Shown: in pieces, positions 1,540-33,352 of the stretch
Position numbering within the stretch: position 1 is the first letter of the stretch
Layout: every line of letters starts with the position of its first letter
Assembly: GCA_013203755.1 (NCBI GenBank)
Contig: JABMPI010000636.1
Coordinates: 1-35,504 of the forward strand
Length of the DNA stretch: 35,504 nucleotides
Source of the DNA: Bacteroidota bacterium
GTDB taxonomy: Bacteria > Bacteroidota > Bacteroidia > Bacteroidales > Prolixibacteraceae
Direction: 5' to 3'
Position numbers and translations under genes: made by a program
Notes under the pieces: generated by a model
Database searches by the model: none
Told to the model about the DNA's origin: nothing
Seen by the model: only the letters and a program-made list of their open reading frames with translations

Positions 1540-3222
1540 ATGTTACATTCACTAAAAATATGGATTACTATAATACTGATAGCAAGTCAGGTTACAACTA
1601 TTATTTCATCAGATACACCAGCCGAAAACCTGAGAACTTCGCCTAACAATTACTACTTGAATCCAAATTCTACGGACAGTGAACCTGAGGGATCATTCAA
1701 TAATCCTTTTCATAACTTAGATGAAATAAACCGTGTGAAATTAAATCCTGGCGACTCCATACTTATTGCTGCCGGAACAATTAACCGGGGGACATTGGTT
1801 TTAAAGGATGTTGCGGGAGCAGAGGATCAGCCAATAGTAATCTCCAGTTACCACTCAGGAAACCAACTCGCAGATAAACGGGCAATTATAGATGCAAAAG
1901 GATTTGCAAATGGCGTGCTGCTTGAAGATTGCAGCTACATTGAAGTGAATAATATTCTTATTAAGGCCAATGCCGGTGGAATAAAAACTTTGGATGGAAA
2001 ACCACCTGATAAACGATGTGGTATTTTAGTGCAAACCACCAAACCCGGAAATTACGGGAATATTACCTTGTCGGGTTTGATGGTGAAAGACTTGTTTTAC
2101 GAAGATCCCGGTTTTACCAGAGGTAAAGATGAGGTCAACTCGGCAAATGGAACGCAGAAATACGGCTGGGGAATCCGGTTCATTAACAAGACAGAAGGTG
2201 CACTTCTAAAGGATTTGAAAGTGATGAATTGCGAAATAAACAACATCGCTCATACCGGGCTAAAGTTTACCGCAAAAAATCATGGAATAGAAAATATTTA
2301 CGTAGTAAACAACCGGGTAATTCAAACCGGAGGTCCCGGAATACAAATGTCGGGGGTTAAAAACGGAATGGTCGATAGAAATTATGTCGATAGTTCGGGA
2401 AGCAATAACGACAGCCGCAAATGGGGTCGGGGCAGCGGTCTCTGGACCTGGGGAACAAGCAATGTGCTTATTCAGAATAATTATTTTTTGAATGCAAACG
2501 GACCGGGTGATTCTGCAGGTTGTCACATTGATTTTAATTGCAGCGATGTGGTTGTACAATATAATTTCAGCGCCAACAATGCAGGTGGTTTTTGCGAAAT
2601 TCTCGGTAACAATTACAATTGTGCCTACCGATACAACATTAGTGTTAACGACGGTTATCGTGTAAAGGGTGTAAACGGTGCTTTTCAGGAAGGAAAAATA
2701 TTTTGGTTAAGCGGTTTCAACGGGAGTGGTAAAAAAAGGGATGGGCCTTTTAACAGTTATTTCTACAACAATACCATTTATGTGAAGAAAGATATTGTGG
2801 CCAAAATTGCGGTCGACCGAGCATCGTCGGGAGTACTAATTGCCAATAACATTTTTTATATTGAAGGTGAAAGCCGTGCAGTAAAAGGCGACCAGTATAA
2901 GCCGGAAACCGAGGGTGAATCGTGTGTTGAAAAAATTGTATTCGAGAATAATTTATACCTGGAGAAAGAAAACTGGCCGGAAGAAGTTTTAATTCAAGAT
3001 AACAAACCCATATTTGGCGATCCTGATTTTCAAAATAAAGGAGGCCTCAACATTAAAGATTACATCCCGGGAAACAATCAACTTGTAAAAAATAAAGGCA
3101 TAGAAATCCGGAAACTGAATGATGATTTGGTGGGATTAAAAGTTGGATTGCAGGTAAAACATGATATTTTGGGAAATAATATTACCGGAACTCCTGATAT
3201 GGGAGCCATTGAATTAAAATAA
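1540..3222 (+). CDS. Secreted right-handed parallel beta-helix protein, GH136-related candidate glycoside hydrolase
   Basis: N-terminal signal; YYLNP..G..NNPF..L..IN...LNPGDSIL start; Asn/Ile ladder repeats; GRGSGLWTW..N..IQ.N, D-SAGCHI-D, QYNFS.NN.GGF.E; C-terminal PDMGAIE. Confidence 0.8.
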   Translation: MLHSLKIWITIILIASQVTTIISSDTPAENLRTSPNNYYLNPNSTDSEPEGSFNNPFHNLDEINRVKLNPGDSILIAAGTINRGTLVLKDVAGAEDQPIVISSYHSGNQLADKRAIIDAKGFANGVLLEDCSYIEVNNILIKANAGGIKTLDGKPPDKRCGILVQTTKPGNYGNITLSGLMVKDLFYEDPGFTRGKDEVNSANGTQKYGWGIRFINKTEGALLKDLKVMNCEINNIAHTGLKFTAKNHGIENIYVVNNRVIQTGGPGIQMSGVKNGMVDRNYVDSSGSNNDSRKWGRGSGLWTWGTSNVLIQNNYFLNANGPGDSAGCHIDFNCSDVVVQYNFSANNAGGFCEILGNNYNCAYRYNISVNDGYRVKGVNGAFQEGKIFWLSGFNGSGKKRDGPFNSYFYNNTIYVKKDIVAKIAVDRASSGVLIANNIFYIEGESRAVKGDQYKPETEGESCVEKIVFENNLYLEKENWPEEVLIQDNKPIFGDPDFQNKGGLNIKDYIPGNNQLVKNKGIEIRKLNDDLVGLKVGLQVKHDILGNNITGTPDMGAIELK

Positions 3223-3300
3223 TTTATCGACATATAAAAAACAATAAAATAAAACCACCATGATAAAAGAGTTTGGACACAAAGGAGAATGTTTAAAATT

Positions 3301-3340
3301 TCCTGTCTTGCGTCTTAATACTTGAGTCTTGGTTCTAATT
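3301..3340 (+). repeat. Heptamer-periodic intergenic motif, copy 1
   Basis: tcctg-tcttgcg-tcttaat-acttgag-tcttggt-tctaatt; 32/40 identical to 10320-10359. Confidence 0.75.
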
Positions 3341-3347
3341 ATAAATT

Positions 3348-4847
3348 ATGAAAAAGCCGCTTATAATAAATCTGTTATTGATATTTCTGTTTGCAATTTT
3401 TGCAGCTTGTACAAAAAAATTGGGTAGTAAAGATATACTCCCCCAACCAAATATTCTTCTTATCGTTGTTGACGATCAGGGATACGCCGATTTTGAACCC
3501 TTTGAAAATCACGATTCGCAAATATCTACGCCAAACATGTCGAGGCTGGCAGATGCCGGAATGGTATTTACACAAGCTTATACAACGGCTCCGGTTTGCA
3601 GTCCGTCGCGTGCAGGATTAAATACCGGGAAAAACCAATTTCGTTGGGATGAAAAAGCGAGCTGGACACCCGGATTACCTGACAGCGTAAAAACCATTGC
3701 CGAATATTTAAAAGAAGCGGGGTACACAACTGCACGTGTTGGAAAGGCCGATTTTGGAACCAACTACCATAAATTTGATGTTCGCGAATATCCACTCAAT
3801 CATGGTTACGACTATTTTCTTGGATTCAGCGCACATGCCCATGATTACTGGTTACTATCCGATGAAATGGCCAAACGAACTCCCGACCCAAATGGAACCA
3901 GTGCTCACCTTGGCCCTTTAATGGAAGACGGTGGCTACAAAAGTTATGACGAAGGTTACATCACGGAAATTTTTACGGATGAAGCCATTAAGTATCTTGA
4001 AACTGAAAAGGACAAACCATTTTTCCTGACCTTGAGTTACAATTCGGTTCACCACATTATTCACGAGGTTCCTCAAAAGTATTTAGATAAATATAATGTG
4101 CCACCTATTCATAATTACGAACCGGATAGTATGGAAACTTTCCAAAAACAAAAACCAGGATCTTATTCTGCTTACTACGAAAAATATACTCGTCCGGGAG
4201 CCATAAACGATGAGGACATGCGAAAATTTTATCTGGCAAATCTGAATTGTTTAGATGATAATATTGGCCGTGTTTTAGATGCATTGAAAAAAGAAAAGTT
4301 GGATGAAAAAACATTAGTTGTTTTTGTCTCGGATAATGGAGGGTCGCCATTAACCGGAGCTAGTAATAACCCACTTTCTGGTGGTAAATATTCGCTTTGG
4401 GAAGGTGGTATTCGTGTGCCAATGGCAATTCGTTGGCTGGGCAAAATTGAAGCTGGGAAGGTTCAGAATAAATACGTTTCGGCATTGGATATTTTGCCAA
4501 CCATAGCCGAAGCTGCCGGAATTACGTTAACTGATGAAACTATTGATGGAACAAGTCTTTTAAATGAAAATGCTAACAATGACCGCCTGTTAGTTTGGAG
4601 GTGGGGAAATACCTGGGCAGCACGAAAAGGGGATTGGAAATTAACAAATTCAAATGAGGGGTGGGGGAAAGGACGCCCAACTAATTTGTACATTAAACCC
4701 GTTTCGAACGATTTGAGTCTGAAACTTTTTAATCTGGAAGACGACCCGGCTGAAAGAAAAAATCTGGCAGAGAAAATGCCACAAAAAGTGGAACAACTGA
4801 AACTGGAATACGATAACTGGGTGAAGCAAAATAATGGGAAATATTAG
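3348..4847 (+). CDS. S1 sulfatase, Cys-type, predicted lipoprotein
   Basis: Lipobox-like IFAAC; PNILLIVVDDQGY, CSPSRAGLNTG, SDNGG, KYSLWEGGIRVP. The usual GKWH motif is replaced by GKAD. Confidence 0.92.
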   Translation: MKKPLIINLLLIFLFAIFAACTKKLGSKDILPQPNILLIVVDDQGYADFEPFENHDSQISTPNMSRLADAGMVFTQAYTTAPVCSPSRAGLNTGKNQFRWDEKASWTPGLPDSVKTIAEYLKEAGYTTARVGKADFGTNYHKFDVREYPLNHGYDYFLGFSAHAHDYWLLSDEMAKRTPDPNGTSAHLGPLMEDGGYKSYDEGYITEIFTDEAIKYLETEKDKPFFLTLSYNSVHHIIHEVPQKYLDKYNVPPIHNYEPDSMETFQKQKPGSYSAYYEKYTRPGAINDEDMRKFYLANLNCLDDNIGRVLDALKKEKLDEKTLVVFVSDNGGSPLTGASNNPLSGGKYSLWEGGIRVPMAIRWLGKIEAGKVQNKYVSALDILPTIAEAAGITLTDETIDGTSLLNENANNDRLLVWRWGNTWAARKGDWKLTNSNEGWGKGRPTNLYIKPVSNDLSLKLFNLEDDPAERKNLAEKMPQKVEQLKLEYDNWVKQNNGKY

Positions 4848-4944: not shown

Positions 4945-6498
4945 ATGACAAGGAGAATTGGAATTTTTGGGGCATTTGCATTACTAAGCCTTACCTTTTT
5001 TATCGGATGTAAGAGAGGGAAAAGTGAACAAGAGAAAACAGTTCAACCTAATATCGTAATTGTGTATTTGGACGACCTGGGATATGGTGATGTTGGCGCC
5101 TATGGCGCTACCGGATTAAAAACACCCAACATCGATAAATTGGCAAAGGGAGGGATTATGTTTACCGATGGTTATGCAACTTCGGCAACATGCACGCCAA
5201 GTAGATACGGACTGCTTACCGGAGTTTATCCATGGCGCGAAAAAGATGCAAAAATTCTACCGGGGACTGCTCCATTGTTAATAAAAACGGAGCAGTTGAC
5301 CATTCCTAAAATGTTAAAAGAAAAAGGTTATCATACCGGAATAGTGGGCAAATGGCACCTGGGTTTAGGCAGCGGAAATACAAATTGGAACGAAAAAGTT
5401 GCCCCCGGACCAAATGAAGTGGGTTTCGACTTTTCCTACATTTTAGCTGCCACCCAAGACCGCGTACCAACCGTTTATATTAAAAATGGTGATGTGGTTG
5501 GTTTAGATCCCAATGACCCCATTGAAGTAAATTACAATAAAAACTTTGAAGGTGAACCTACCGGAAAAGATAATCCGGAATTGACGACAATGAAATGGCA
5601 TCATGGTCACAATAACAGCATAGTTAATGGGATTCCGCGAATTGGTTATATGAAAGGTGGCGAAAAAGCAAAATGGTCAGATATTGATATGGCCGATCAT
5701 TTTTTAGCTATTGCAAAGGATTACGTAAAAATGCATAAAAACGAACCCTTTTTTCTCGTTTATACCATGCAGCAACCTCACGTGCCAAGAACACCAAATC
5801 CTCGTTTTGAAGGAATGTCAGGCATGGGACCTCGTGGCGATGCAATTGTAGAAGCCGACTGGTGTTTGGGTGAATTTGTTAAAACACTGGAAGAGGAAGG
5901 TCTTTTGGAAAATACATTAATTGTTTTCTCTAGCGACAATGGCCCAGTGTTAAATGATGGCTATTATGATGATGCAGAAGAAAAACTGGGCGATCATAAA
6001 CCAGGCGGTGAATTACGTGGGGGCAAATATAGTCTGTTTGAGGCCGGCACGCGTGTTCCGTTTATTACTTACTGGAAAGGCAAAATTCAACCAACAGTTT
6101 CCAATGCATTGGTTTGCCAGGTTGATTTATTGGGGTCGCTGGCAGCATTGGTTGGCAGCGCTGAAAAAACGCAGGACAGCCAGGATTTGATTGACGCATT
6201 TATGGGCAAGAGCAAAACCGGTAGGGAAGAACTGGTTCTGGAAGCAACCACTCGTACTGCAATGCGCAAAGGCGATTGGTATTTAATTCCTCCGTACAAA
6301 GGGCAGGCGTTAAATAAAGATGTAAATATTGAACTTGGTAATAGTACTGATTTTCAACTTTATAACATAAAAGAAGATGTAGGTCAGCAAAAAAATCTCG
6401 CCAAAGAAAATACAGAAAAGCTTCAGGAAATGATAGCAACTTTTGAGAGTATTAGAGGGAAAGATTATTCAAATATTCAGAAGTTGAAACTGAAATAG
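4945..6498 (+). CDS. S1 sulfatase, Cys-type, predicted lipoprotein; S1_15-like (galactose-6-sulfatase type)
   Basis: FFIGC lipobox; DDLGYGD, ATSATCTPSRYGLLTG.YPWR, GKWHLGLG, ATQDRVP, PHVPR.P, SDNGP, GGKYSLFEAGTRVP. Confidence 0.92.
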   Translation: MTRRIGIFGAFALLSLTFFIGCKRGKSEQEKTVQPNIVIVYLDDLGYGDVGAYGATGLKTPNIDKLAKGGIMFTDGYATSATCTPSRYGLLTGVYPWREKDAKILPGTAPLLIKTEQLTIPKMLKEKGYHTGIVGKWHLGLGSGNTNWNEKVAPGPNEVGFDFSYILAATQDRVPTVYIKNGDVVGLDPNDPIEVNYNKNFEGEPTGKDNPELTTMKWHHGHNNSIVNGIPRIGYMKGGEKAKWSDIDMADHFLAIAKDYVKMHKNEPFFLVYTMQQPHVPRTPNPRFEGMSGMGPRGDAIVEADWCLGEFVKTLEEEGLLENTLIVFSSDNGPVLNDGYYDDAEEKLGDHKPGGELRGGKYSLFEAGTRVPFITYWKGKIQPTVSNALVCQVDLLGSLAALVGSAEKTQDSQDLIDAFMGKSKTGREELVLEATTRTAMRKGDWYLIPPYKGQALNKDVNIELGNSTDFQLYNIKEDVGQQKNLAKENTEKLQEMIATFESIRGKDYSNIQKLKLK

Positions 6499-6706: not shown

Positions 6707-7573
6707 TTGAAACTCAAGTATAAATCCGAAGACAAAGAATATAATCAATCCTTTTATTTAAGGAGGGAGAATGTGCCATATCATGAAGGGAACTGGCATT
6801 ATCACGAAGAATTTGAGCTGATTTATATTATTCGGGGTGAAGGTGTTCGGATTGTTGGTGATAGCTTATCCAATTTTAGGGCCACTCAATTGGTGTTGGT
6901 GGGGTCATGGTTGCCTCATTTATGGAAAAATGTTGAATCGAATCAAAATGATGAAACGGTTGATATTATTATAATTAAATTTTCGCGGTTTATAGGCGGT
7001 CAGGAAATTTTTTCAATACCCGAATTTTATGAAATTTCAAATCTTTTAAATCAGTCAAGCAGAGGTTTAGCTTTTGGGGAAAAAACCGTCAAAAAAGTTC
7101 ACAAACTTCTACTAAATATGTCCACGTCTGATGGCTCTGATAAAATCATTAATTTGTTGCTTGTTTTGAAGTTGCTTTCAGAAGTGGATGATTATAAAAT
7201 GCTCTCCAGTTCTGAGTTTACCCTACCAACATCAATATCCGGGGAAAATCGTTTAAGTAGAATTATCAACTTTATCTCAAATGAATATGCGAATCAGATC
7301 GCTTTGGAAGATTTAGCCAAAGAAGCTGCAATGACAACCAGTTCACTTTGCCGCTTTTTTAAAAGCAGAACCAATAAAACCATATTTCAGTTTATTAACG
7401 AATTCAGAATCGGTAAAGCCTGTCAGCTATTAATATCCGGGAATCAATCAGTAACTGAGGTTTGTTTTAATTCAGGGTTTAACTCTTTAACTACTTTCAA
7501 CCGGGTTTTTAAAGAGTATAAAAGAGTTACTCCCAGCAAATACAAGGAGAAATATCGGGAGCTGAATCAGTAA
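6707..7573 (+). CDS. AraC-family transcriptional regulator (cupin + HTH), positional analogue of cgrA
   Basis: WHYHEEFELIYI cupin motif; C-terminal LEDLAKEAAMTTSSLCRFFK and SVTEVCFNSGFNSLTTFNRVFK double HTH; TTG start. Confidence 0.93.
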   Translation: MKLKYKSEDKEYNQSFYLRRENVPYHEGNWHYHEEFELIYIIRGEGVRIVGDSLSNFRATQLVLVGSWLPHLWKNVESNQNDETVDIIIIKFSRFIGGQEIFSIPEFYEISNLLNQSSRGLAFGEKTVKKVHKLLLNMSTSDGSDKIINLLLVLKLLSEVDDYKMLSSSEFTLPTSISGENRLSRIINFISNEYANQIALEDLAKEAAMTTSSLCRFFKSRTNKTIFQFINEFRIGKACQLLISGNQSVTEVCFNSGFNSLTTFNRVFKEYKRVTPSKYKEKYRELNQ

Positions 7574-7783: not shown

Positions 7784-9220
7784 ATGAATTTTGGGTATCA
7801 CAAGCTTTATATCGACGGGAAATTAGTTGATGCTGAAAGCAAGGAACGCACAGCGGTAATTTGCCCGGCAACCGGAGAACCAATTGCAGAAGTTGCAAAA
7901 GCAGGAGCTGCAGATGCTGAAAAAGCTTTGGATGCTGCACAAAGAGGGTTTAAATATTGGTCTAAACTTTCGCTTGTCGAACGTACTGAATGGATGACCA
8001 GATTGCGCACGGCTGTTTTAGAAAACGAAGATTTGCTTCGTCTGGCAATGATTTATGAAATGGGAAAAACATACGAAGGCGCCTGGGAAGATATTGAAGC
8101 TGTTGTAAATGGTTTAGACTGGTATCCAAATGCGATGAAAAACTATCGCGACGAACAAATACCTGATTACGAAAACACACACAGTCATAAAATGATTCAT
8201 CAACCGGCGGGTGTTGCAGTAGCATATCTGGCGTGGAATTTCCCATTGTTGAATGTAGGTTTTAAGCTGGGGCCAGCTCTTGCTGCAGGTTGTAGTTTGA
8301 TTATTAAACCTTCAACACTTTCACCATTGTCTGCCTATTTGATGGGAAAAATTATGCACGACATTAATTTTCCGGCCGGTGTTGTAAATATTATTTCAGG
8401 CCCTGCTAGTGAGGTTGCCAATACACTCACAAAAAGCAAAAAAACCAATGTGTTAACCATGATTGGTTCTACGCAAACTGGTTTAAAGGTAATTGCTGAC
8501 AGTACAACTTCAATAAAAAAGTTTGGATTGGAATTGGGAGGAAACGCTCCATTTATAATATTTGATGATGCAGATTTCGACACTGCTTTGAATTTGGCAA
8601 TTGGTTTGAAATTCGGCAACAGCGGACAGATTTGTGTCGCAGCCAACCGTATTTTTGTACATAAAAGTATTCACGATAAATTTCTTGCTGCCTACGTAAA
8701 AAGGGCGCAAGCATTAAAACTTGGTTTTGGTAAAGATGCCAAACCTGATATGGGCCCGGTAGTAACCAGGTCAGACCGCGACCGCATGTTTGAGCTCGTT
8801 GAAGATGCAGTTTCAAAAGGAGCAACCTTAGAAACCGGTGGTAAAATTCCTGAAGGGAAAGAGAAAGGCAACTGGATTCAACCTACCGTATTAAGTGGCG
8901 CCACGCCCGACATGCGGGTTTTTAAAGAAGAAATATTTGGCCCGGTTGCACCAATTTTTAGTTTCGAAACCGACGATGAAGTTTTGGAATTAGCCAACGA
9001 TACAGAATATGGCCTGGCATCTTATATTTTTACCAATAACCATAAACGTGTTGAACGTTTTACTGCTGAACTTGATTTTGGCGAAGTACAGGTAAATGGG
9101 GTTAAATATTCAATTTATTTGCCTCACGGAGGAATTAAGAATAGTGGAATCGGACACGATTGTTCGCATTTGGCTTTGGAAGATTATTTGGTTAAGAAGC
9201 GCGTTACAATTGCAAAATAA
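7784..9220 (+). CDS. dauA: NAD(P)-dependent aldehyde dehydrogenase, probable 3,6-anhydro-galactose dehydrogenase
   Basis: AWNFP, IIKPS, LELGGNAP (catalytic Glu), GQICVA (catalytic Cys), EEIFGP. Specificity is inferred from context (AraC, permease, enolase-family gene, sulfatases). Confidence 0.8.
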   Translation: MNFGYHKLYIDGKLVDAESKERTAVICPATGEPIAEVAKAGAADAEKALDAAQRGFKYWSKLSLVERTEWMTRLRTAVLENEDLLRLAMIYEMGKTYEGAWEDIEAVVNGLDWYPNAMKNYRDEQIPDYENTHSHKMIHQPAGVAVAYLAWNFPLLNVGFKLGPALAAGCSLIIKPSTLSPLSAYLMGKIMHDINFPAGVVNIISGPASEVANTLTKSKKTNVLTMIGSTQTGLKVIADSTTSIKKFGLELGGNAPFIIFDDADFDTALNLAIGLKFGNSGQICVAANRIFVHKSIHDKFLAAYVKRAQALKLGFGKDAKPDMGPVVTRSDRDRMFELVEDAVSKGATLETGGKIPEGKEKGNWIQPTVLSGATPDMRVFKEEIFGPVAPIFSFETDDEVLELANDTEYGLASYIFTNNHKRVERFTAELDFGEVQVNGVKYSIYLPHGGIKNSGIGHDCSHLALEDYLVKKRVTIAK

Positions 9221-9244
9221 AAATCAACTTAAAATCTAAATAAA

Positions 9245-10251
9245 ATGGAATCAACTTTTTTACCTTTTCTTCTGGTAATATTTGCCAGTATCTTTCAAGG
9301 AAGTTTTGGCGTTGGAATGAAATACATGGCCCCGTTAAAATGGGAGTCGTGGTGGCTGGTTCACGTAACAATTGCAATGGTACTATTCCCTCTAACTTGG
9401 GCGCTAATTGCAGTTCCCGGATTATTCGATATTATTGGAAACGCTCCAATGAATGCAGTTGCGTTAGCAATGTTTTTTGGATTTTTATGGGGAGTTGGCG
9501 GAATTTTATTTGGTGTAAGTATACCTTACATCGGCATCTCTCTTACCTACGGAATTGTAATGGGACTTGCTTCTTCGGTGGGTAGTATTATCCCGCTTCT
9601 TCAAATGGAAAATGCAACTTCAAATCCGGCCTTCCCGGTTGTAATTGCTGGTGTATGTGTTATGCTATTTGGTGTTGCAATAACGGCAGTTGCTGGAATA
9701 AAAAGAGACAAAGCAAAAAATGAAAATAAGAAATCAGACAAAATAGTTAAAGGGTTGATAATTGCTGCGGTTTGTGGTGTTTTATCTGCCTTGTTGAATG
9801 TAGGTTTTGCCAACGCTGCACCAGTTGCAAAAGTAGCCGAGGCTTCGGGCGTAATTACCCGGAACAGCAGTTTGGCTGCCTGGGTAGTTGTACTTGTCGG
9901 AGCATACTTAATGAATGCTGGTTACTCCTTAGTTTTACTTTTCAAAAATAAAAGCTGGGGCTCTTTTGGTGTTGCTAAATCTGGCAAAGCTTATATGTGG
10001 TCGATTATTGCAGGACTTTGCTGGTTTGCCGCACTTGGCGTATACGGACAAGGCTCGGCATTATTAGGCGAAATTGGGCCGGTCATCGGATGGCCAATAT
10101 TATTAGGACTGTCATTAATCATCAGTAATATTTGGGCGTATGGCGCTGGAGAGTGGAAAGGTGCAGCAAAACCTTTCAGATTACACTACTCGGTTTAGCC
10201 GTTTTAATTTTGGCCAGCGTTATTCTTGGCTATGCAAATACTGTTCAATAA
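9245..10251 (+). pseudogene. RhaT/DMT-family sugar:H+ symporter with a 1-bp frameshift near the 3' end (pseudogene or sequence error)
   Basis: Multi-TM protein with KWESWWLV, GFLWGVGGILFG, SNIWAYGAGEWKGA. The ORF stops at 10198, but the -1 frame continues LLGLAVLILASVILGYANTVQ* to 10251, supplying the last TM helix. Confidence 0.8.
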
Positions 10252-20130: not shown

Positions 20131-20176
20131 AAAATTGATTTTTGTCTAAATGAAATTGGGATTAACTTAAAATTAG

Positions 20177-20244: not shown

Positions 20245-20329
20245 ATGTTATAGATTATAAAGTTATTTTAAAATTGGAAAAGCCTATTGTTTTGTTGTAA
20301 AACTAATGGGATTTGTAAAACTAATAAAC

Positions 20330-21421: not shown

Positions 21422-21525
21422 AATGATTGCTATGAATGAGCATGCAGGAATGCTTCACAAACATGCATAATTAAAAAGGGAGTGGCAGGCATCGAATACA
21501 TTTGAAAACTTACAATTTTAATCAT

Positions 21526-22965: not shown

Positions 22966-22976
22966 ATTAGGATGTT

Positions 22977-25112: not shown

Positions 25113-25192
25113 TTCCAATTGATGATGTGAAATGAGCATGTTGTAAAGCTGTTTTCGGAATTCGGCAAAAATCCCTATCATTGTATTACTGG

Positions 25193-25750
25193 ATGACTTC
25201 ATTCGAAAGAATATATACAGAGCATTACCACTATTTATTTCTCTACAGCCTGAAGTTTGTAGAAAATGATAACGATGCACACGACATTGTGCAAGAAGTA
25301 TTTGTGTCTGTTTGGGAAAAAGAAAAATATAAACTGGAAAAAACACATCTAAAATCCTATTTGTTTAACTCGGTGCGTAATAGTTGTTTCAACTATTTGA
25401 AACACCAAACTATTGTTAGGAAGCATGTTGAAGAAGAACATGATTCGCTAAAAATGCATGAATTAGATTTTTACAAGAGTGGTGAAAAATCGCTTATTGA
25501 AAAAGAAGATCTTGAAAAGATATATGCTGCCATAGATTCTTTATCAGACAATTATAAGGAAATAATTCAGCTTAGTAGATTTGAAGGATTAAAAAATAAA
25601 CAGGTTGCAGAACAATTGAAAATCCCGGGAAGAACGGTTGAAACCCGTTTGTTTAGAGCATTAAACAAACTTCGCGAAATACTATCCGATAAACAAATCT
25701 TCATTTTATTTAATCTGTCTGTTAGAAAAGAGAAAAAAAATAATTTTTAG
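25193..25750 (+). CDS. ECF-type RNA polymerase sigma-70 factor (Bacteroidota PUL type)
   Basis: FERIY, AHDIVQEVFVSVW, KSYLFNSVRN..FNYLKH, LSRFEGLKNKQVAEQLKI..RTVE. The start is uncertain (TTG 25181 or ATG 25193). Confidence 0.92.
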   Translation: MTSFERIYTEHYHYLFLYSLKFVENDNDAHDIVQEVFVSVWEKEKYKLEKTHLKSYLFNSVRNSCFNYLKHQTIVRKHVEEEHDSLKMHELDFYKSGEKSLIEKEDLEKIYAAIDSLSDNYKEIIQLSRFEGLKNKQVAEQLKIPGRTVETRLFRALNKLREILSDKQIFILFNLSVRKEKKNNF

Positions 25751-25803
25751 TGACGTAGTTTTTTGAGTTGAGTTGTATTGATAATACTACACAACAAAAA
25801 AGG

Positions 25804-26793
25804 ATGAGTCAGATTAAAGATATTGAACAACTTATTGCACGTTATTTAAACGGTGAATGTAATGTTAGCGAGCGGAATGAATTATTGAGTTGGATAGATA
25901 CATCGGAGGCGAATAAAAAGCTTTTTTATCGTATTAAGGATGTTTGGGATGCATCGTTGAAAAAAGAGGACCGCGCACACCAGGCATTATTTCATTTTTA
26001 TAAACAACAGGCAACAAAAAATAATCAATCACAAAAAGTTATCCAATTATGGAAGCGGGTTGCAAGTGTTGCAGCAGTATTCGTTGTTGGTCTGGTATCA
26101 ATAGTTTTATTGAATACTCAATTAGGAACTGACAATAGCATGGTTACTTTTAAAGTTCCACTGGGATCGCGCTCGGAAGTAATGCTGGCTGACGGAAGCC
26201 AAGTCGTACTAAATTCCGGTTCAGAAATTACCTATCCCGCTACATTTAACTCAAAACAACGGGAAGTTACCTTAAGCGGGGAAGCGTTCTTCAAGGTGAA
26301 ATCAGATAAGAATCATCCCTTTATTGTAAAAACTTCCGATTTTAATGTGCACGTAAGCGGTACACAGTTTAATGTCTGTAGTTATACCGATAATAATTAT
26401 TCATCGCTTACACTTGCCGAAGGTAAAGTTGGAATTCAGTTTTCAGGTAAGGATGAGTTGGTGGATGTATCTCCGGGTGAAAAATTGAATATTAATAGGG
26501 AGAATAGAAAATATCATATTTCAGAAACTGAAGTAGAGACAGCTTTTGCATGGAAAGACGGAGAATTTTGTTTTAAAGAAACTGCTTTCCCTGAATTGAT
26601 AAAACGCCTGGAACGATGGTACGATGTAACCCTGACCTATTCAGCACCGGAACTTGAAGAGATGGAATATAGCGGACGATTCAAAAACCAGGAATCCATT
26701 TGGCAGGTATTGGATGCCTTAAAATTGACCTCCCCAATTAATTATAAAAAACAAGGATTTAGAGAATTTAAAATTATATATCAGCCTATGTAA
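25804..26793 (+). CDS. FecR-family anti-sigma factor
   Basis: LIARYLNGE...E..EL..W, single TM (VASVAAVFVVGLV), LADGSQVVLNSGS, REVTLSGEAFFKV, V.GTQFNV, AWKDG, LERWYDV. ATG 25804 is preferred. Confidence 0.92.
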   Translation: MSQIKDIEQLIARYLNGECNVSERNELLSWIDTSEANKKLFYRIKDVWDASLKKEDRAHQALFHFYKQQATKNNQSQKVIQLWKRVASVAAVFVVGLVSIVLLNTQLGTDNSMVTFKVPLGSRSEVMLADGSQVVLNSGSEITYPATFNSKQREVTLSGEAFFKVKSDKNHPFIVKTSDFNVHVSGTQFNVCSYTDNNYSSLTLAEGKVGIQFSGKDELVDVSPGEKLNINRENRKYHISETEVETAFAWKDGEFCFKETAFPELIKRLERWYDVTLTYSAPELEEMEYSGRFKNQESIWQVLDALKLTSPINYKKQGFREFKIIYQPM

Positions 26794-26801
26794 AAAAAGA
26801 A

Positions 26802-26833
26802 AAGGTGGAATGTCGGCTAGGACAAACCACCTT
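26802..26833 (+). promoter_or_regulatory. Stem-loop in the fecR-susC spacer
   Basis: aaggtgg (26802-26808) / ccacctt (26827-26833) with inner tgtc/gaca pair. Confidence 0.5.
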
Positions 26834-26877
26834 CGATAATCAATAATTATTAATCATCGTATTAACATTTCAAATTT

Positions 26878-29800
26878 ATGAAAAAAAAACGAATTCGTGG
26901 AAGTAGTGGCTCATTTGTCAACCTTCCCAAAATTTATCGAACTATGAAACTAATCTGTTTGTTTATGTTTGTTGCCTTATTTCAGGTTTCCGCTTCGAGT
27001 TACGCTCAGAGTGCAAAGCTAAATATTTCAGGGCAAAACTTAACACTTGAAAAGGTCTTCGAGTTAATTGAAGACCAGTCGGAATTCTCATTCATCTACA
27101 ACTTAAAGCAGATTGATTTAAGCAAAAAAGTGGATGTTGAATCTAAAAATCAAAAAGTTGAAAGAATACTAAACGAGGTTCTTGAAGGAACCGACATTGC
27201 CTATACTGTAAACGACCGCTTAATAGTGGTACATCGCGGTGGTGAGGCAAGTAGTTTGTTATCTTCAGTTACTCAGCAAAAATCGATTACCGGAAAAGTC
27301 ACCGATGCGCAGAGAGAACCACTTCCGGGAGTAACAGTAATAATTAAAGGTACTACAAGTGGTACAGTAACTAACTTTAACGGAGAATTCAACTTAAACA
27401 ATGTTACCTCCGAAAGTGCTTTGGTGTTTTCATTTGTAGGGATGACCACTCAAGAGCTTCTTGTTGGAAATCAAACTTCCGTTGACATAACTATGTTGGC
27501 TGATGCAATTGGTCTTGAAGAGGTGATAGCAGTTGGCTATGGTACTATGAAAAGGATGGATATTAGTGGTGCATCTGCCAGAGTTAGTACTACTGTATTC
27601 AAAGATCTTCCTTCAACTGATATTGCCCAATCAATGCAAGGTAGAGTGGCCGGTTTAGCAATTACCAGTAATTCAGGTTCGCCCGGTGCAAGTTCTAAAA
27701 TCAGAATTCGAGGAGGTAATTCAATGTTAGGGAATAACAACCCATTAATCGTTTTAGATGGTGTAGCTGTTAATATTGGGCTGAATGATATCAATCCAAA
27801 CGATATTGCATCACTCGATATTCTTAAAGATGCATCTTCAACAGCTATTTACGGTTCAAGAGGTGCAAATGGCGTTATTGTTATTACTACCAAAACAGGT
27901 AATTCCGATATACCACGCATTCAAATATCTACAAATTACTCTTTGGATCAGGTTGCCAATCGCTATGATATGCTTAATGCCGCCGATTTTGTGACTTTGA
28001 ATGACATTACTTTGACAGGCCCAAGTGCTGATACTGACTGGCAGGATCAGGTATTTCAAAATGGAATGACAAGTAATACCCAATTAAGCATAACAGGTGG
28101 TAACGAAAAATTGAAATATTTTTTATCGGGAAGTCTGGTTGATCAGGATGGACTAGTTAGAAATACAGGTTACCAGAAATATAACTTACGTTCGAATATT
28201 GATACAAAAATAAATGACAAGCTAAATGTTTCATTAAACCTTTCTGTTTCTAAAACCGAAAGAAACAATACGAATGATAATGCAGCATCTAAAGGAAGTA
28301 CAATATGGCAATCATTAATCTGGTCGCCTACCGAGCCGGTATTTAACGAAGATGGTTCATACAATAAAACAGACCAATATAGCTCAATCGGGCTTAACCC
28401 GTTTATGGTTGCAACCGAACGTCAGAACGATTTATTTGCTACGGCATTACTTGCTAACTCTAAAATCGACTATAAAATAACAGATAAGTTAACTTATAGT
28501 GCCATACTTGGTGCCGACGAAATTAAAACGGAGCGAGCCACTTTTACAAATCAATTTGTTAGTCCCACAACTGGTTCGTCCAGGTCTTATAATGGTAATT
28601 TCTTTTGGCAATTCACTAACTTTTTAACGTATAAGAACACTTTTAACGATGTTCATCGTATATCAGTAATGGCTGGCTTTGAGCAATCGCAAAATACAAC
28701 TAAAGGATTTAATGCGAATGGTAGTAATTTGGCCACAGAAACAGTTGGGTATCATAATCTAGCATTGAATGCTTCAGCCGCAATTGGTTCTTACTGGAGA
28801 CAATCGTCACTTAGGTCTTATCTTGGTCGTGCAACCTACTCGTTAAGAGATAAATATTTGTTAACCGCAACCTTTAGGATGGATGGCTCTTCAAAATTTC
28901 AGGATTCCAATAAATACAGTTCTTTTCCTTCGCTTGCTCTTGGTTGGAGAATTAGTGAAGAATCGTTTATGCAAAGTGCCGATAATATTGATAACTTAAA
29001 ATTACGTGCAAGTTGGGGAATTACAGGTAGTCAGGCAATTGCCCCATATGCAACTCTTGCTTTATTAACACCAAAAGCATATTCTTACGGAACCCCCAAT
29101 TTATTAACAGGTTATATGCCGAGTGGAGCTCCAAATCCTGACTTAATATGGGAAGAAACAACTCAAATTAATATTGGCGCCGATCTGTCGATGTTTAATG
29201 GAAGATTGAACGTTACGGCTGATTACTTTCAAAAGAATACCGATGGTTTGCTTCAGGCAAAAGCACTACCTGCATACAATGGCGGAGGTTCAATTATTTC
29301 AAATATCGGAGAGATAGAGAACAAAGGTATTGAATTGGCAATTGGTGGTGATATAATCCGGAAATCTGATTTTAGCTGGAATGCTGCTTTAAATTATTCA
29401 AAATTGAATAATAAAGTTTTATCAATTGGCGATGAAGAGCAGATCTTTCCGGGTGGAAACTATGCAAGTGGTTTTTTAAGTAGCAAGGTTTTTATTGTTA
29501 AACCTGGAGAATCGCTGGGAAGTTTATATGGATATAATTTCTTGGGCATCTGGCAACAAGAGGAAGCATCAGAAGCATTAAAGTATGGTAATGTACCAGG
29601 TGATTCCAAATATGAGGATTTGGATGGAAATTATATTATTGATGGAGGAGATCAGAAAATAATAGGAAAAGGTTTGCCTGACTTCAATTGGGGTTTGAAT
29701 AATTCATTTTCGTATAAAGATTTTGATCTAAATATTATGATCGAAGGAGTTCACGGGCGAGATGTAATAAACCTTGGCTATGCTGGTGCAGGAGCTGCAG

Positions 29801-30171
29801 TTGGCGATGCCCGGGCGATAACTCTCGAAGATGCAAAAAATACCTGGACAGAATCAAATACGAACACCATTTGGCCAAAAATTGGAAGTACCAGTAATAC
29901 CGACTATATTAATTCTTCTAAATGGGTTCAAGACGGTAGTTATGTGAAACTAAGAAACATCAGTTTGGCTTATTCTATTCCGAAAGAAAAGTTAAAAATT
30001 GGCGATTTACGAATTGTATTAAGTGGACAGAACCTTCTTACTTTTACCGATTATAAAGGGTTTGATCCGGAGGTTTCATCTACTGGAAAAAGTGATATCG
30101 ATCAAGGTTTAGATCTGGGATCGTATCCAACCGCCAAATCATATACAATAGGTTTGACACTAAATTTTTAA
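26878..30171 (+). CDS. susC: SusC-like TonB-dependent transporter with N-terminal signalling (STN) extension
   Basis: STN-like IEDQSEFSFIY; ITGKVTD...PLPGVTV, LEEVIAVGYG, IRIRGGNS, LKDASSTAIYGSRGANGVIVITTK, YVKLRNISLAY, terminal Phe. Confidence 0.96.
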   Translation: MKKKRIRGSSGSFVNLPKIYRTMKLICLFMFVALFQVSASSYAQSAKLNISGQNLTLEKVFELIEDQSEFSFIYNLKQIDLSKKVDVESKNQKVERILNEVLEGTDIAYTVNDRLIVVHRGGEASSLLSSVTQQKSITGKVTDAQREPLPGVTVIIKGTTSGTVTNFNGEFNLNNVTSESALVFSFVGMTTQELLVGNQTSVDITMLADAIGLEEVIAVGYGTMKRMDISGASARVSTTVFKDLPSTDIAQSMQGRVAGLAITSNSGSPGASSKIRIRGGNSMLGNNNPLIVLDGVAVNIGLNDINPNDIASLDILKDASSTAIYGSRGANGVIVITTKTGNSDIPRIQISTNYSLDQVANRYDMLNAADFVTLNDITLTGPSADTDWQDQVFQNGMTSNTQLSITGGNEKLKYFLSGSLVDQDGLVRNTGYQKYNLRSNIDTKINDKLNVSLNLSVSKTERNNTNDNAASKGSTIWQSLIWSPTEPVFNEDGSYNKTDQYSSIGLNPFMVATERQNDLFATALLANSKIDYKITDKLTYSAILGADEIKTERATFTNQFVSPTTGSSRSYNGNFFWQFTNFLTYKNTFNDVHRISVMAGFEQSQNTTKGFNANGSNLATETVGYHNLALNASAAIGSYWRQSSLRSYLGRATYSLRDKYLLTATFRMDGSSKFQDSNKYSSFPSLALGWRISEESFMQSADNIDNLKLRASWGITGSQAIAPYATLALLTPKAYSYGTPNLLTGYMPSGAPNPDLIWEETTQINIGADLSMFNGRLNVTADYFQKNTDGLLQAKALPAYNGGGSIISNIGEIENKGIELAIGGDIIRKSDFSWNAALNYSKLNNKVLSIGDEEQIFPGGNYASGFLSSKVFIVKPGESLGSLYGYNFLGIWQQEEASEALKYGNVPGDSKYEDLDGNYIIDGGDQKIIGKGLPDFNWGLNNSFSYKDFDLNIMIEGVHGRDVINLGYAGAGAAVGDARAITLEDAKNTWTESNTNTIWPKIGSTSNTDYINSSKWVQDGSYVKLRNISLAYSIPKEKLKIGDLRIVLSGQNLLTFTDYKGFDPEVSSTGKSDIDQGLDLGSYPTAKSYTIGLTLNF

Positions 30172-30183
30172 AACAAAACAGAC

Positions 30184-31668
30184 ATGAATAAATACATTAT
30201 ATTTTTGCTTTTTGTTAGCTTGTTCGTCTCTTGTTCTGAAGATTTTTTAGAGGAAGAGCCTAAAGGGCAACTAACTACAAAGGGCTTTTTTCAAAACGGA
30301 CAAGACCTTGAACTAGGAGTTACAGCTTTATACAACAGGGTAAATGGAATTTTTAGGGCAAGTCAAACTTGCACAGCACTTATGGGAGCTGATGATATAA
30401 CCACAAGAGCAGGAAGTAACAAAGGACCTTTTAGGGAATACGATACGTTTTCTGCAACCAATACCAATCCATGGGTGTATTACGACAAACCCTATAGCGC
30501 GATTCTCGCGGCTAATAACATTATTGTAAATTATGAAGATGCAGAAAAAGCGACCGAAGAAGAACGCAAATTTGCTGCCGGACAAGCTTATTTTATGAGG
30601 GCACTAAGTTATTTCTGGTTGGTACGTGTGTTTAATGAAATTCCGCTGATTACACAATTGGAAGTTGATTTTGAAGCTGTAAAATCAAGTCCTCAAGATG
30701 TTTATGCGCTTATAATAGAAGATCTTAAAATAGCAGAAGAGTTTTTACCTAACAGTTGGTCGGGTCTAAAAGATGGGGTTGCTCCAACAAAAGGATCAGC
30801 AAAAGCTCAGTTGGCCTCTGTTTACCTACAGATGACCGGTTATCCTGTAAATGATGAATCGAAATATGCACTTGCTGCCCAAAAAGCAAAAGAAGTTATT
30901 GATAATGCAGGTACTTATGGATATCGTCTTTTAGATGATTTTGCTGATTTATGGACTCCGGAAAAGTTTAATGATGAAACTGTTTTTGGTTTGATTTATA
31001 ACCAAAAAACCCCTGGCTGGACTGCGGAAAATGGAAATATGTGGGCTCCAGTGGCTTGTAAACCTGAAGAAGAAGGAGGTTGGGACGATTATTTTGCTGA
31101 AATTAATTTCTTCAACAAATTCCCGGAAGGACCTCGAAAAGATGCTACATTCCAAACGGTAATAAAACCAAATGCGGAAACAACCTGGCATTGGACCGAG
31201 GGAGTTCAAAAACATCCTTATTACAAAAAAATGCAACAAATTGAAGGCTACAATCCGGATGAACCGTGGATTTATATCGATTGGTGGTCAGGTCGTACAA
31301 ATATGGTAATAAGATATGCCGAAGTATTATTGATTTATGCCGAAGCACAAGCTATGGCTTCTTCTCCTGACCAGTCGGCGTATGATGCTCTAAATGCAGT
31401 TCGAATCAGAGCAGGATTGTCAGAAATGTCATCGGGACTTTCTAATGTAGCCTTTAGAGATTCGGTAGTAATGGAACGAGCCTGGGAGTTTGCCGGAGGC
31501 GAGATAAATGCCGCCAGATGGTATGACCTTGTACGTTTGGAAAGAGTAGAAGCAGCGGCTCAGGACAGACATGAATGGGAACTTCTAATTCTGAATCCTC
31601 CAACAAAAGAGGATTATTTTGCACCAATACCTATTAGCGAAATATTAATTAATCCAAACCTGGAGTAA
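30184..31668 (+). CDS. susD: SusD/RagB-like surface lipoprotein
   Basis: FVSC-SEDFLEEEP lipoprotein start; AYFMRALSYFWLVRVF, IRYAEVLLIYAEA, LNAVRIRAG, ERAWEFAGG..RWYDLVR, PIP..EI..NPNL. Confidence 0.95.
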   Translation: MNKYIIFLLFVSLFVSCSEDFLEEEPKGQLTTKGFFQNGQDLELGVTALYNRVNGIFRASQTCTALMGADDITTRAGSNKGPFREYDTFSATNTNPWVYYDKPYSAILAANNIIVNYEDAEKATEEERKFAAGQAYFMRALSYFWLVRVFNEIPLITQLEVDFEAVKSSPQDVYALIIEDLKIAEEFLPNSWSGLKDGVAPTKGSAKAQLASVYLQMTGYPVNDESKYALAAQKAKEVIDNAGTYGYRLLDDFADLWTPEKFNDETVFGLIYNQKTPGWTAENGNMWAPVACKPEEEGGWDDYFAEINFFNKFPEGPRKDATFQTVIKPNAETTWHWTEGVQKHPYYKKMQQIEGYNPDEPWIYIDWWSGRTNMVIRYAEVLLIYAEAQAMASSPDQSAYDALNAVRIRAGLSEMSSGLSNVAFRDSVVMERAWEFAGGEINAARWYDLVRLERVEAAAQDRHEWELLILNPPTKEDYFAPIPISEILINPNLE

Positions 31669-31740
31669 AAGTTGTTGTCTTAATAAATTGAAGAGAATTG
31701 ATTAATTTCTAGATTTATGTAGTTTAGTTTAGTTAGTTTG

Positions 31741-31780
31741 AAGGAAGGTGGTGTAATGCTGCCTTCCTTATTTTTTATTT
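31741..31780 (+). terminator. Intrinsic terminator (or stabilising hairpin) after susD
   Basis: aaggaagg...ccttcctt stem (31741-31769) followed by a T-run. Confidence 0.75.
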
Positions 31781-31807
31781 TGATAATTTTATAGAAAAAA
31801 CGGAACC

Positions 31808-33352
31808 ATGAGACAACTAATTATTCTGTTATTTGTAATTGTATTTTTTTCGTGTTCAAATGAAAATAGCTATTACATCGATGCAAAAAAAGGTGATGAT
31901 TCAAATTCAGGGCACTCTCCAAAATCAGCCTGGGTAAGTCTTGAAAAAGTAAATGAAACTATTTTTCAGGCTGGCGATGAAATTCTTTTTAAAGCAGGAG
32001 GAAGTTGGAGTGGTCAGGTTGAACTAAAAGGAAGTGGAACAGCAGAAGACCCAATTTTAATAAATAAATACGGGGTAGGGGTAAATCCTGCAATCAATGG
32101 CAAGGGTGAAAAACTACATACGCTTCTTTTGCATAATATAGAATATTGGGAAATCCGAAATCTGGAAATTACAAACACCGGAAAAGAACGTGCTACAAAA
32201 CGACGTGGAGTGATTGTTTCTGCAGAAGATTTTGGCGATTGCCATCACATTGTTTTAGATAGTTTGGAGATTCACCATGTAAATGGGGGTCTGGTTAAAA
32301 GCAATGGCGGAGGAAGTGCAATTCTATGGCAAAATAGTGGCGATTCAGTTAAAACCCGGTTTATAGATTTGCAGATTACAAACTGCCATTTGCACCATTG
32401 CGGTAGAAATGGTATAAATTCTCGTGGTTACACCAATCGAAAAGACTGGCATCCGAGTTTGGAGGTGGTTATCCGAAATAATTTGTTGGAGCAAATTCCG
32501 GGAGATGGAATTGTGCCGATTGGTACCGATGGGGCAATTATTGAGCACAATGTTATGCGGGATTGCCCCGATATTTTATCGCACAAAGAAGCCGCAGCTG
32601 GAATTTGGCCATGGAGTGCCGATAATACAATTATTCAGTTTAATGAAGTGTCGGGACATAAAGCCAAATGGGATGGACAGGGTTTCGACTCGGACTGGAA
32701 CTGCCAAAACACAATCATTCAGTACAATTACAGTCACGATAATTATGGCGGTTTTTTATTGGTGTGTAACAATGGAAGCAATGTCCACACCGACCGTAAT
32801 ATTGGAACTACTAACACAATTGTCCGCTACAACGTTAGTCTAAACGACGGAATTCGTCCGTATGAAACAACTCAAAGAAGTTGGTTTGCACCGACAATGC
32901 ACATTTCCGGGCCGGTAGAAAATACGCAGATTTATAACAATGTATTTATAATTCCGGAAAAACCATTAAAAGAAAATGACCGAACCATTGTTGAAATGGA
33001 TAACTGGGGTGGACCGTGGCCTGAAAATACCAGTCTTTCAAACAATCTTTTTTATGTGAATGAAAAAGCAGATTTCTCTTTTGAAAAGGACAAAAATACA
33101 AGCTTTACCAATAACTGTTTTTATGGAGAATTTGAGAATCTTCCTGAAGACTCGGCTGCTATTTTTGACGACCCACTGTTTGTAGATGTAACCGCTCGTG
33201 GAGCAGGATTTGAAGTATTGAAAGATTTCATGTTAACAAAGTTTTCACCTTTAAAAGACAAGGGAATCTCAATAAAAAATAATGGTGGAAAAGATCTGTT
33301 TGGGAATACTTTAGATGGAAAAATAACAATTGGGATTCACGAATTTGAATGA
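31808..33352 (+). CDS. Lipoprotein, right-handed beta-helix, GH136 (lacto-N-biosidase LnbX)-like
   Basis: FFSC lipobox; YYIDAKKGDDSNSG.SP..AW.SLEKVN, GDGIVP, AAGIWPWSADNTIIQFNEV, D-GQGFDS-D, IQYNYSHDNYGGFLLVC. Confidence 0.8.
   Translation: MRQLIILLFVIVFFSCSNENSYYIDAKKGDDSNSGHSPKSAWVSLEKVNETIFQAGDEILFKAGGSWSGQVELKGSGTAEDPILINKYGVGVNPAINGKGEKLHTLLLHNIEYWEIRNLEITNTGKERATKRRGVIVSAEDFGDCHHIVLDSLEIHHVNGGLVKSNGGGSAILWQNSGDSVKTRFIDLQITNCHLHHCGRNGINSRGYTNRKDWHPSLEVVIRNNLLEQIPGDGIVPIGTDGAIIEHNVMRDCPDILSHKEAAAGIWPWSADNTIIQFNEVSGHKAKWDGQGFDSDWNCQNTIIQYNYSHDNYGGFLLVCNNGSNVHTDRNIGTTNTIVRYNVSLNDGIRPYETTQRSWFAPTMHISGPVENTQIYNNVFIIPEKPLKENDRTIVEMDNWGGPWPENTSLSNNLFYVNEKADFSFEKDKNTSFTNNCFYGEFENLPEDSAAIFDDPLFVDVTARGAGFEVLKDFMLTKFSPLKDKGISIKNNGGKDLFGNTLDGKITIGIHEFE

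Follow-up and report, generated by a model that had tools for sequence, protein, structure and literature searches.

Three proteins of uncharacterised GH136 branches in a sulfatase-rich polysaccharide utilization locus of a Prolixibacteraceae bacterium, with a sulfated beta-1,3-galactan as the favoured substrate

Which enzymes cut the polysaccharide chain in a locus that is rich in sulfatases and lacks the known carrageenases? The question is raised by a 35,504-nucleotide stretch of DNA from a Bacteroidota bacterium of sediment or water (family Prolixibacteraceae; assembly GCA_013203755.1, contig JABMPI010000636.1; hereafter the window), which spans contig C586 from end to end in a fragmented assembly (809 contigs; completeness 86.65%) and carries part of a polysaccharide utilization locus (PUL) together with genes of 3,6-anhydro-D-galactose (D-AnG) metabolism. 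An initial annotation had singled out three beta-helix genes, here called bhA, bhB and bhC, as relatives of glycoside hydrolase family GH136 that replace the known carrageenases in a candidate new galactan depolymerase system. The three proteins do not stand outside the known families; they belong to uncharacterised branches of GH136, likely with a new specificity. We consider, with a probability of roughly 0.5, that an algal 3-linked beta-D-galactan, 4-O/6-O-sulfated, is their substrate and that they act as retaining beta-galactanases or galactobiosidases.

The three open reading frames (ORFs) are present where the annotation had placed them. bhA (1540..3222, + strand) encodes a single-domain GH136-like beta-helix of 560 amino acids (aa), bhB (17148..19433, +) a 761-aa protein with a CBM6/35-like N-terminal module, a GH136-like beta-helix and a type IX secretion system (T9SS) tail, and bhC (31808..33352, +), directly after a SusD gene, a 514-aa lipoprotein (Cys16). 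In bhA and bhC the beta-helix begins immediately past the signal peptide. Pfam detects Beta_helix in bhB and bhC and no family in bhA, and it finds the T9SS tail on bhB; the CBM6 match at the N-terminus of bhB is weak. bhB is likely the secreted enzyme of first attack. The common motifs, i.e. G(I/L)W-x-(W/F), Q.N, D-x6-D and QYN.S..N.GGF, align across the three proteins, and the codons at 2509/2530, 18462/18483 and 32672/32693 all encode Asp, within DSAGCHID, DSYGMHID and DGQGFDSD, respectively. Pairwise BLASTP comparisons gave E values of 7e-51, 5e-26 and 3e-32 at 25-30% identity, and no further paralog was matched among the 10,686 ORFs of the genome. A recent local triplication was ruled out by this low identity, by separate orthologs at 65-83% identity elsewhere and by a tree that splits the branches; judged by sequence divergence, the three genes are old out-paralogs. 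Homologues are numerous (at least 2044 for bhA and at least 3086 for bhC at E 1e-10). An atlas look-up with one bhA homologue returned unnamed beta-helix clusters only, and a metagenome scan with bhB recovered 2 loci, both from a single type of organism.

The kinship with GH136 that the annotation had claimed is confirmed by a sequence profile, by fold models and by the alignment of the catalytic Asp pair. With bhA as the query, phmmer found 6KQS (ErLnb136; E 1.5e-16) and 7V6M (TnX; 2e-12), and a profile of 25 sequences of the three types matched all five solved GH136 sequences over the whole domain (E 1.5e-80 to 1.4e-67), the next match reaching only 8e-10. Structure models cover bhA and bhC. 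Superposition of the bhC model (predicted local distance difference test, pLDDT, 90.5) gave Z scores of 36.2, 35.9 and 35.2 to the GH136 structures (TnX, LnbX, BsaX), the next fold reaching 30.1, with a root mean square deviation of 2.4-2.5 A over ~460 residues. For the bhA model (pLDDT 77.3), Foldseek rows 1-6 are all GH136 (E 9e-17 to 1e-13), followed by a clear gap to the next match (5e-7). The Asp pairs of the three proteins align with the catalytic D568/D575 of ErLnb136 (D324/D331 of bhA fall on D570/D577 of the 6KQS chain, a checked numbering offset of 2), of which D568 is the acid/base and D575 the nucleophile, while W548 stacks on the galactose in subsite -2 (PMC7335108). The aromatic residue that matches W548 is W304 in bhA, F419 in bhB and W269 in bhC, and both Asp are invariant in 119/119 bhA and 119/119 bhC homologues. 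The NCBIfam LnbX model scores the three proteins at 39-65 bits against a cut-off of 2500, which was set for a 1498-position full-length protein. Because profile, models, Asp pairs and galactose-stacking aromatic all match, we place the three proteins in GH136 and predict, from homology and catalytic residues, that they are retaining beta-glycosidases; the profile and the two models rule out a new fold or family.

The characterised GH136 lacto-N-biosidases, LnbX (5GQC), ErLnb136 (6KQS), TnX (7V6M) and BsaX (7V6I), are homologous over the whole beta-helix domain, and they share with the window proteins the catalytic Asp seven residues apart, the GIWxW rung with the galactose-stacking aromatic and the same C-terminal closure. 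However, identity to bhA, bhB and bhC is only ~26-33%, and the profile of the three has no equivalent of four LnbX insertions (~21, 23, 14 and 10 residues). The window proteins also appear to lack a GH136-I domain and an evident LnbY neighbour (the matches to 6KQS begin at chain residue 244, beyond its N-terminal domain), and they sit in sulfatase-rich Bacteroidota PULs, whereas the lacto-N-biosidases sit in milk-oligosaccharide loci. The active site of LnbX is described as a pocket (PMC8106489), which its long loops appear to build around lacto-N-biose (PMC8106489, PMC7335108). Such a closed pocket was not found in our proteins, and since the four insertions are missing, the sequences suggest a cleft that is more open than the LnbX pocket.

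Within this fold two branches can be told apart. bhC keeps AAGIWPW and DGQxxDxD (here AAGIWPW..DGQGFDSD, predicted Asp pair D289 and D296) nearly as in TnX and LnbX, and it is the closest to canonical GH136. bhA and bhB carry DSxGxHID and FxEILG (the His branch), with the predicted active-site residues D324 (acid/base, nt 2509), H329 (nt 2524) and D331 (nucleophile, nt 2530) in bhA and D439, H444 and D446 in bhB. The split between the branches had a Shimodaira-Hasegawa-like approximate likelihood ratio (SH-aLRT) support of 99 in a quick, midpoint-rooted tree of 75 of 138 domains, which were thinned at 68% identity and did not include the characterised GH136 rows. In the His branch, a His and a Glu, probably on the groove floor, take the place of an Asp and a Met of LnbX; in bhA these are H329 and E353, beside the nucleophile and invariant in 119/119 homologues, and R213, K242, R293 and R297 are, like them, kept in 118-119/119. 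From the register of the beta-helix, R213, K242, H329 and E353 probably face the groove.

The same replacements could mean that bhA and bhB are no simple hydrolases but bind glycans, or that the His-Glu pair performs elimination, epimerisation or cyclisation. The Z scores of the bhA model are indeed nearly tied between GH136 (29.3) and alginate epimerases (28.9). On the other hand, both Asp are invariant, GH136 aligns over a longer stretch (~450 vs ~335 residues) and at 26% vs 14% identity, and Foldseek leaves a clear gap after the GH136 rows. A uronic acid is required for both lyase and C5-epimerase reactions, and uronate-specific neighbours did not recur. We regard a non-hydrolytic role as very improbable.

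Gene context is the basis of every step that concerns the substrate. We scanned 80 bhA loci, up to 10 kb on each side. Any sulfatase was present in 75 of them, an ortholog of the galactose-4-sulfate (G4S)-like sulfatases of the window in 51 and an S1_15-like sulfatase in 33; in 61/80 loci a sulfatase is adjacent or fused to the bhA-type gene. The earlier suggestion of a sulfated, probably galactose-rich substrate is supported. GH128 and GH16 occurred in 23 loci each, GH43_24 in 19, GH29 in 11 and dauB, the 3,6-anhydro-D-galactonate cycloisomerase gene, in 1; GH43_24 or GH128 was found in 31/80 loci, and in 28/54 of the loci of at least 15 kb. DagA-type GH127, GH82, GH150, GH167, GH110 and kappa/beta GH16 were each found in 0 of the 80. 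In 20 control loci with dauB (from 20 of the 27 Flavobacteriaceae genomes that have dauB and no bhA ortholog) we found GH127 in 11, kappa/beta-type GH16 in 5 and no GH43_24, GH128 or GH136-like gene, the last zero being partly by construction. The GH43 neighbour resembles GH43_24 structures of Bacteroides (6EUG, E 2e-111) and entries named as exo-beta-1,3-galactanases, and the GH128 and GH16 neighbours match structures of the beta-1,3-glucanase type, with no match to an agarase, porphyranase or carrageenase; two of the GH16 neighbours had weak NCBIfam kappa-carrageenase scores (45-52 bits vs a cut-off of 350). GH128 or GH43_24 also stands beside bhC orthologs in 8 of the 11 loci fetched, and 5/12 Flavobacteriaceae bhA loci are reduced to SusC/D, GH128, a sulfatase and bhA, with or without GH16 (L163, L165, L168, L169, L170). 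Because the neighbours share the beta-1,3 linkage, galactose and 4-/6-sulfate, we favour a sulfated beta-1,3-galactan. Galactans of this 3-linked type, sulfated on C-4 and C-6, are described from Bryopsidales and Dasycladales, and 6-sulfated ones from Cladophoraceae, order Cladophorales (PMC7550628); backbones of sulfated beta-1,3-galactan are described as targets of GH43_24 together with a sulfatase (PMC8406133).

Some further features of the bhA loci are worth recording. A sulfatase is fused to a His-branch beta-helix in 4 ORFs (L005, L049, L059, L176) and to GH16 in 11 (L007, L012, L016, L018, L025, L028, L031, L033, L034, L042, L211, where L007 and L211 are one locus), which ties desulfation to chain cleavage. 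Three recurring neighbours had no Pfam or NCBIfam family, and proteins of ~515-690 aa in or beside the loci (L011:11643-13280, L017:4683-6227, L159:17498-19555, L160:11951-14014), possibly further enzymes, had no family match either; the L011 and L017 types recur in 3 and 4 loci, respectively. In genome G823, a ~90-kb locus (contig C6, 125-215 kb; L157-L162) has dauA/dauB and a distant lambda-carrageenase-like T9SS protein (L160:1182-4439) beside five GH136-like genes, many sulfatases, GH116 and GH95.

Degradation of a sulfated beta-1,3-galactan would begin outside the cell, where secreted bhB, the surface lipoprotein bhC and a GH128 encoded upstream may nick the chain, bhB and bhC probably acting through an open groove as the pocket loops of LnbX are missing. 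SusC/D would import the sulfated oligosaccharides, and these would be shortened by sulfatases of the G4S and galactose-6-sulfate (G6S) types and by bhA, the groove of which probably displays invariant Arg/Lys. By double displacement, with D324 as acid/base and D331 as nucleophile, bhA is predicted to release short oligomers or units of beta-1,3-galactobiose, and GH43_24 and GH2 might finish the products to galactose.

Several points weigh against this galactan reading. The sugar might be glucose, since the characterised members of GH128 are beta-1,3-glucanases and laminarinases are the best or nearly best matches of the GH16 neighbours. In the stretch covered, 49/80 bhA loci have neither GH43_24 nor GH128, and the GH43_24 of the source genome lies on another contig (C112). 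The names of many carriers (Pedobacter, Flavihumibacter) suggest fresh water, a habitat in which few of the known source algae occur, and the sulfatase subfamilies were assigned by similarity only. Lastly, the window has a complete D-AnG pathway with bhB inside it, 15 of 50 bhA genomes (a subset of the 80 loci, picked for long contigs) have dauB, and His-branch genes share a contig with dauB within ~55 kb in G005, G011, G017, G025, G026, G034, G029, G046 and G823, mostly close kin. As a separate observation, members of Pedobacter, Pelobium, Flavihumibacter and Ferruginibacter carry bhA with a G4S-like sulfatase and GH128 in low-sulfate habitats (L013, L017, L022, L023, L060, L071, L077, L080).

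Alternatively, the substrate could be another sulfated beta-1,3-glycan, either a beta-1,3-glucan or galactoglucan of microalgae or cyanobacteria, or a Gal-N-acetylglucosamine (GlcNAc) glycan (type 1 N-acetyllactosamine or keratan-like), in which case the action of bhC would closely resemble that of LnbX. The GH128 and laminarinase-like GH16 neighbours would fit, as would GH116, GH29, GH95 and acetyl-esterase neighbours, the nearly canonical bhC motifs and the freshwater-type carriers. However, no GH20 hexosaminidase or GH3 glucosidase was found among 32 representatives of recurring neighbour clusters (singletons left out), the sulfatases resemble galactose-directed ones, GH43_24 and LacZ-type GH2 recur, and the loops of the LnbX pocket are absent. 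We consider such a glycan distinctly unlikely, although less so than a non-hydrolytic role.

The D-AnG pathway points to a different candidate substrate, a carrageenan. As the initial annotation had it, this pathway is real. An AraC regulator (6707..7573, +) is followed by dauA (7784..9220, +), a 3,6-anhydro-D-galactose dehydrogenase-like gene with 6PNU/6POP as its best PDB match (E 2e-148) and 6J75 behind it (E 2e-98), which we take to be D-type and L-type enzymes, respectively. Next come a RhaT/drug-metabolite transporter (DMT) sugar symporter (9245..10198, +), frameshifted near its 3' end, and dauB (10367..11497, +), which matches 5OLC (Zobellia DauB) at E 3e-171, the next match being at 8e-92. 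An atypical GH2 (11517..14456, +) travels with the gene of a GH78-like (alpha/alpha)6 enzyme (14462..17074, +), and downstream of bhB lie a 2-keto-3-deoxy-6-phosphogluconate (KDPG)-type aldolase, dauD, and a keto-deoxy-sugar kinase in the role of dauC (19459..21421, +). This kinase (20306-21421) is of the PfkB type; a galactonokinase is annotated in the dau loci of Pseudoalteromonas carrageenovora and Flammeovirga. An agar PUL, with L-AnG, was rejected, as the dehydrogenase and the cycloisomerase match D-type structures far better.

The enzymes that would make this a classical carrageenan system were not found, as the annotation had also stated. None of the 23 window proteins has a GH16 Pfam domain, and P. 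carrageenovora GH16 kappa/beta, GH82, GH150 and GH167 carrageenases (one or two members per family, assigned from PMC6262041 and gene order) matched nothing in the window or elsewhere in the genome, which is 86.65% complete. bhA, bhB and bhC had no BLASTP match at E 0.01 to GH82, GH110, GH150, GH167 or GH16 proteins of that species. The GH127 anhydro-D-galactosidase gene dagA is described as strictly conserved in the Bacteroidetes carrageenan PUL (PMC5698469); of the core system given there, the window has dauA and dauB, and no dagA was found in the window or on contigs C464 and C102. The GH127 genes of this incomplete genome are 34-35% identical to the dau-linked GH127 of Flammeovirga, compared with 61-71% in control dauB loci. 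The Pfam GH129 model matched no control genome and was uninformative; a DagB-like protein, recognised by its position and length and by a weak Pfam match, served as query instead and found no match in the genome. Compared with the Flammeovirga dauB/GH127 locus, whose proteins stood in for Zobellia cgtA/cgtB and cgsB, identity is 26% for the window SusD and 28% for the best of its sulfatases.

The association with dauA/dauB that the original proposal implied largely fails. None of the 19 genomes of the own family with a bhA, bhB or bhC ortholog has dauB; among 200 other genomes of this family, bhA orthologs (at least 54% identity) occur in 10, bhC (at least 57%) in 13 and bhB in 1, and the only genome with a dauB ortholog has none of the three. 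In 381 genomes of Flavobacteriaceae (the family of Gaetbulibacter), dauB was found in 29, a bhA ortholog in 14 and both in 2 (Fisher p 0.29; related genomes are not independent, hence such p values overstate). Genome G353, of the same genus and 100% complete, has one syntenic block with GH2, GH78-like, bhB (78% identity), bhC (82%) and a bhA-type gene, to which the sulfatases, DUF5107 and GH43_24 also belong and from which the dau genes are absent; no dauB above 32% identity was found in its genome. Among the carriers without dauB are the isolates Maribellus sediminis, Draconibacterium aestuarii and Pedobacter glucosidilyticus. With orthologs mostly lacking dauB and with neighbours from beta-1,3-acting families, the idea that the three proteins stand in for carrageenases is not supported.

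Nevertheless, one or more of them, most plausibly secreted bhB, might hydrolyse the beta-1,4 linkage in a red-algal galactan with D-AnG (kappa/mu/beta or a theta-type hybrid). The 1,3-linked neocarrabiose would then occupy subsites -2/-1 as a mimic of lacto-N-biose, and the GH78-like/GH2 pair would free D-AnG for DauA-D. The D-type dauA and dauB speak for it, together with the match of the sulfatase at 106 to carrageenan G4S sulfatases, the lack of any known carrageenase, DagA or DagB match in the genome, and six Marinilabiliaceae genomes in which dau-GH2-GH78-like is kept and, 3-4 genes further downstream, a secreted His-branch gene follows; some species with a carrageenan PUL are described as having no known carrageenase (PMC5698469). 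The distribution of dauB speaks against it, being absent from the 19 own-family genomes and present in 2/14 Flavobacteriaceae bhA genomes, as do G353 with its syntenic block, and genomes G614 and G858, in which the dau-GH2-GH78-like block has no GH136-like gene nearby (60 kb and ~70 kb read). Moreover, it is hard to see what GH43_24 would do on a chain of alternating alpha-1,3 and beta-1,4 bonds. We hold a carrageenan-type substrate to be unlikely, although it is the strongest competitor of the sulfated beta-1,3-galactan.

Carboxylicivirga and Labilibacter have the block AraC-dauA-DMT-dauB-GH2-GH78-like-dauD-dauC in conserved form, and it is likely a separable module for D-AnG-containing material that was merged into the PUL in some lineages. 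The GH78-like gene was found in 4/29 dauB-bearing vs 0/12 dauB-free Flavobacteriaceae genomes tested. In eight of 11 genomes with dauB and the GH78-like gene (G000, the source genome, and G005, G011, G017, G025, G026, G046, G614), no DagA-type GH127 and no DagB-like gene was found, while DagA-type genes are present in G034, G823 and G858; because of these eight, one of the GH2/GH78-like pair is a candidate for the enzyme that releases D-AnG. The GH78-like protein, a candidate new 3,6-anhydro-D-galactosidase, keeps the two catalytic Glu of rhamnosidase RhaB, and its adjacent binding motif is changed. G353, which has GH2 and GH78-like without dauB, counts against a strict role in AnG release. 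In the boldest form of our proposal, the His-motif and bhC branches would be the first enzymes dedicated to depolymerising sulfated beta-1,3-D-galactans, equipped for sulfate by the His-Glu pair and an open, Arg/Lys-lined groove, and at the same time the GH78-like protein would found a third, unrelated family of alpha-1,3-(3,6-anhydro)-D-galactosidases, on a D-AnG route without known carrageenases, GH127 or GH129. That both parts hold together is doubtful, and we offer the combination tentatively.

The remaining genes of the window, all on the + strand, fit a large PUL. A sulfatase C-terminal stub (1..99) has its N-terminal half at the end of contig C464 and joins the window to a block of hybrid two-component system (HTCS), SusC, SusD, sulfatase and GH128 genes. 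The window very likely follows C464, because the last gene of C464 and the first 99 bases of the window match both ends of one G353 sulfatase. The GH128 of C464, a lipoprotein with both glutamates just upstream, means that bhA, bhB and bhC are not the sole candidate depolymerases of the PUL. An S1 sulfatase (106..1521) related to solved galactose-4-sulfatases (6PRM, S1_19) is the commonest neighbour of bhA orthologs. A second S1 sulfatase (3348..4847) is followed by a third (4945..6498), which is 45-48% identical to two sulfatases of a P. carrageenovora plasmid locus described with two S1_15 genes. Two more S1 sulfatases lie at 21502..24605, the first 53% identical to that at 106..1521; for an S1_15 type, as 4945..6498 may be, we assume 6-sulfate specificity. 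Extracytoplasmic function (ECF) sigma factor, FecR anti-sigma, SusC and SusD genes (25181..31668) precede bhC, which is followed by one sulfatase split by a frameshift (33428..35106; intact in G353, 557 aa) and a DUF5107-TPR gene (35112..35504) that continues on contig C102 through a 74-base overlap. The frameshifts of this sulfatase (33428-35106) and of the RhaT-type symporter (9245-about 10250), as compared with intact orthologs, may reflect either assembly error or decay. C464, C586 and C102 total 60,700 bases before one gap, and a protein database entry of a 61,617-base contig with bhA and bhC fits a single PUL of ~60 kb. A 669-aa PUL protein that is also encoded on C102 (2563-4569, - strand on locus L001) has a signal-like N-terminus and matches no family of Pfam or NCBIfam. 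Elsewhere in the genome a GH110-like gene appears to be split over contigs C615 and C687 (29-33% identity to P. carrageenovora GH110), with a sulfatase adjoining on C615.

A comparison with known systems brings out the mixed character of the locus. With the carrageenan systems described for Zobellia galactanivorans (PMC5698469) and the plasmid PULs of P. carrageenovora (PMC6262041) it shares dauA, dauB, the DMT symporter, AraC, the aldolase and kinase steps, G4S-type sulfatases and GH2. In contrast, no DagA-type GH127, DagB-type GH129, GH16 kappa/beta, GH82, GH150 or GH167 was found for the window PUL, its kinase is PfkB-type and the GH78-like gene occupies the usual place of GH127. The sulfated arabinogalactan system of Bacteroides plebeius, with GH43_24 and an S1_8 sulfatase, similarly couples desulfation to an exo-beta-1,3-galactanase on a sulfated beta-1,3-galactan, but it has other sulfatase types, its hosts are gut rather than aquatic bacteria, and the part of its description that was covered mentions no GH136-like or GH128 protein (PMC8406133). 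By description only, a further parallel is a PUL of Winogradskyella forsetii, another aquatic member of Bacteroidota, with GH136-annotated genes and sulfatases, which its authors call enigmatic and without obvious substrate (PMC9723794). No characterised GH136 galactanase or carrageenase was found in our literature search, the coverage of which was thin for subscription journals and excluded CAZy, and a term search for "GH136" gave no hit in the main text of PMC6442616, PMC13168452 and bioRxiv 10.64898/2026.05.19.726164.

GH136 is known from gut enzymes that act on milk and mucin-type glycans. If our reading is true, the cleavage of sulfated beta-1,3-galactans is a new job for the family, and the substrate class would give a function to a large aquatic branch whose sulfatase PULs have been called enigmatic in print. 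Such loci would no longer be read as carrageenan PULs, and the enzymes would be tools to sequence the sulfated galactans of green algae, which are studied as anticoagulants. The eight genomes that combine dauA/dauB with GH2/GH78-like and show no known anhydro-D-galactosidase family make the question of the missing carrageenan enzyme directly testable.

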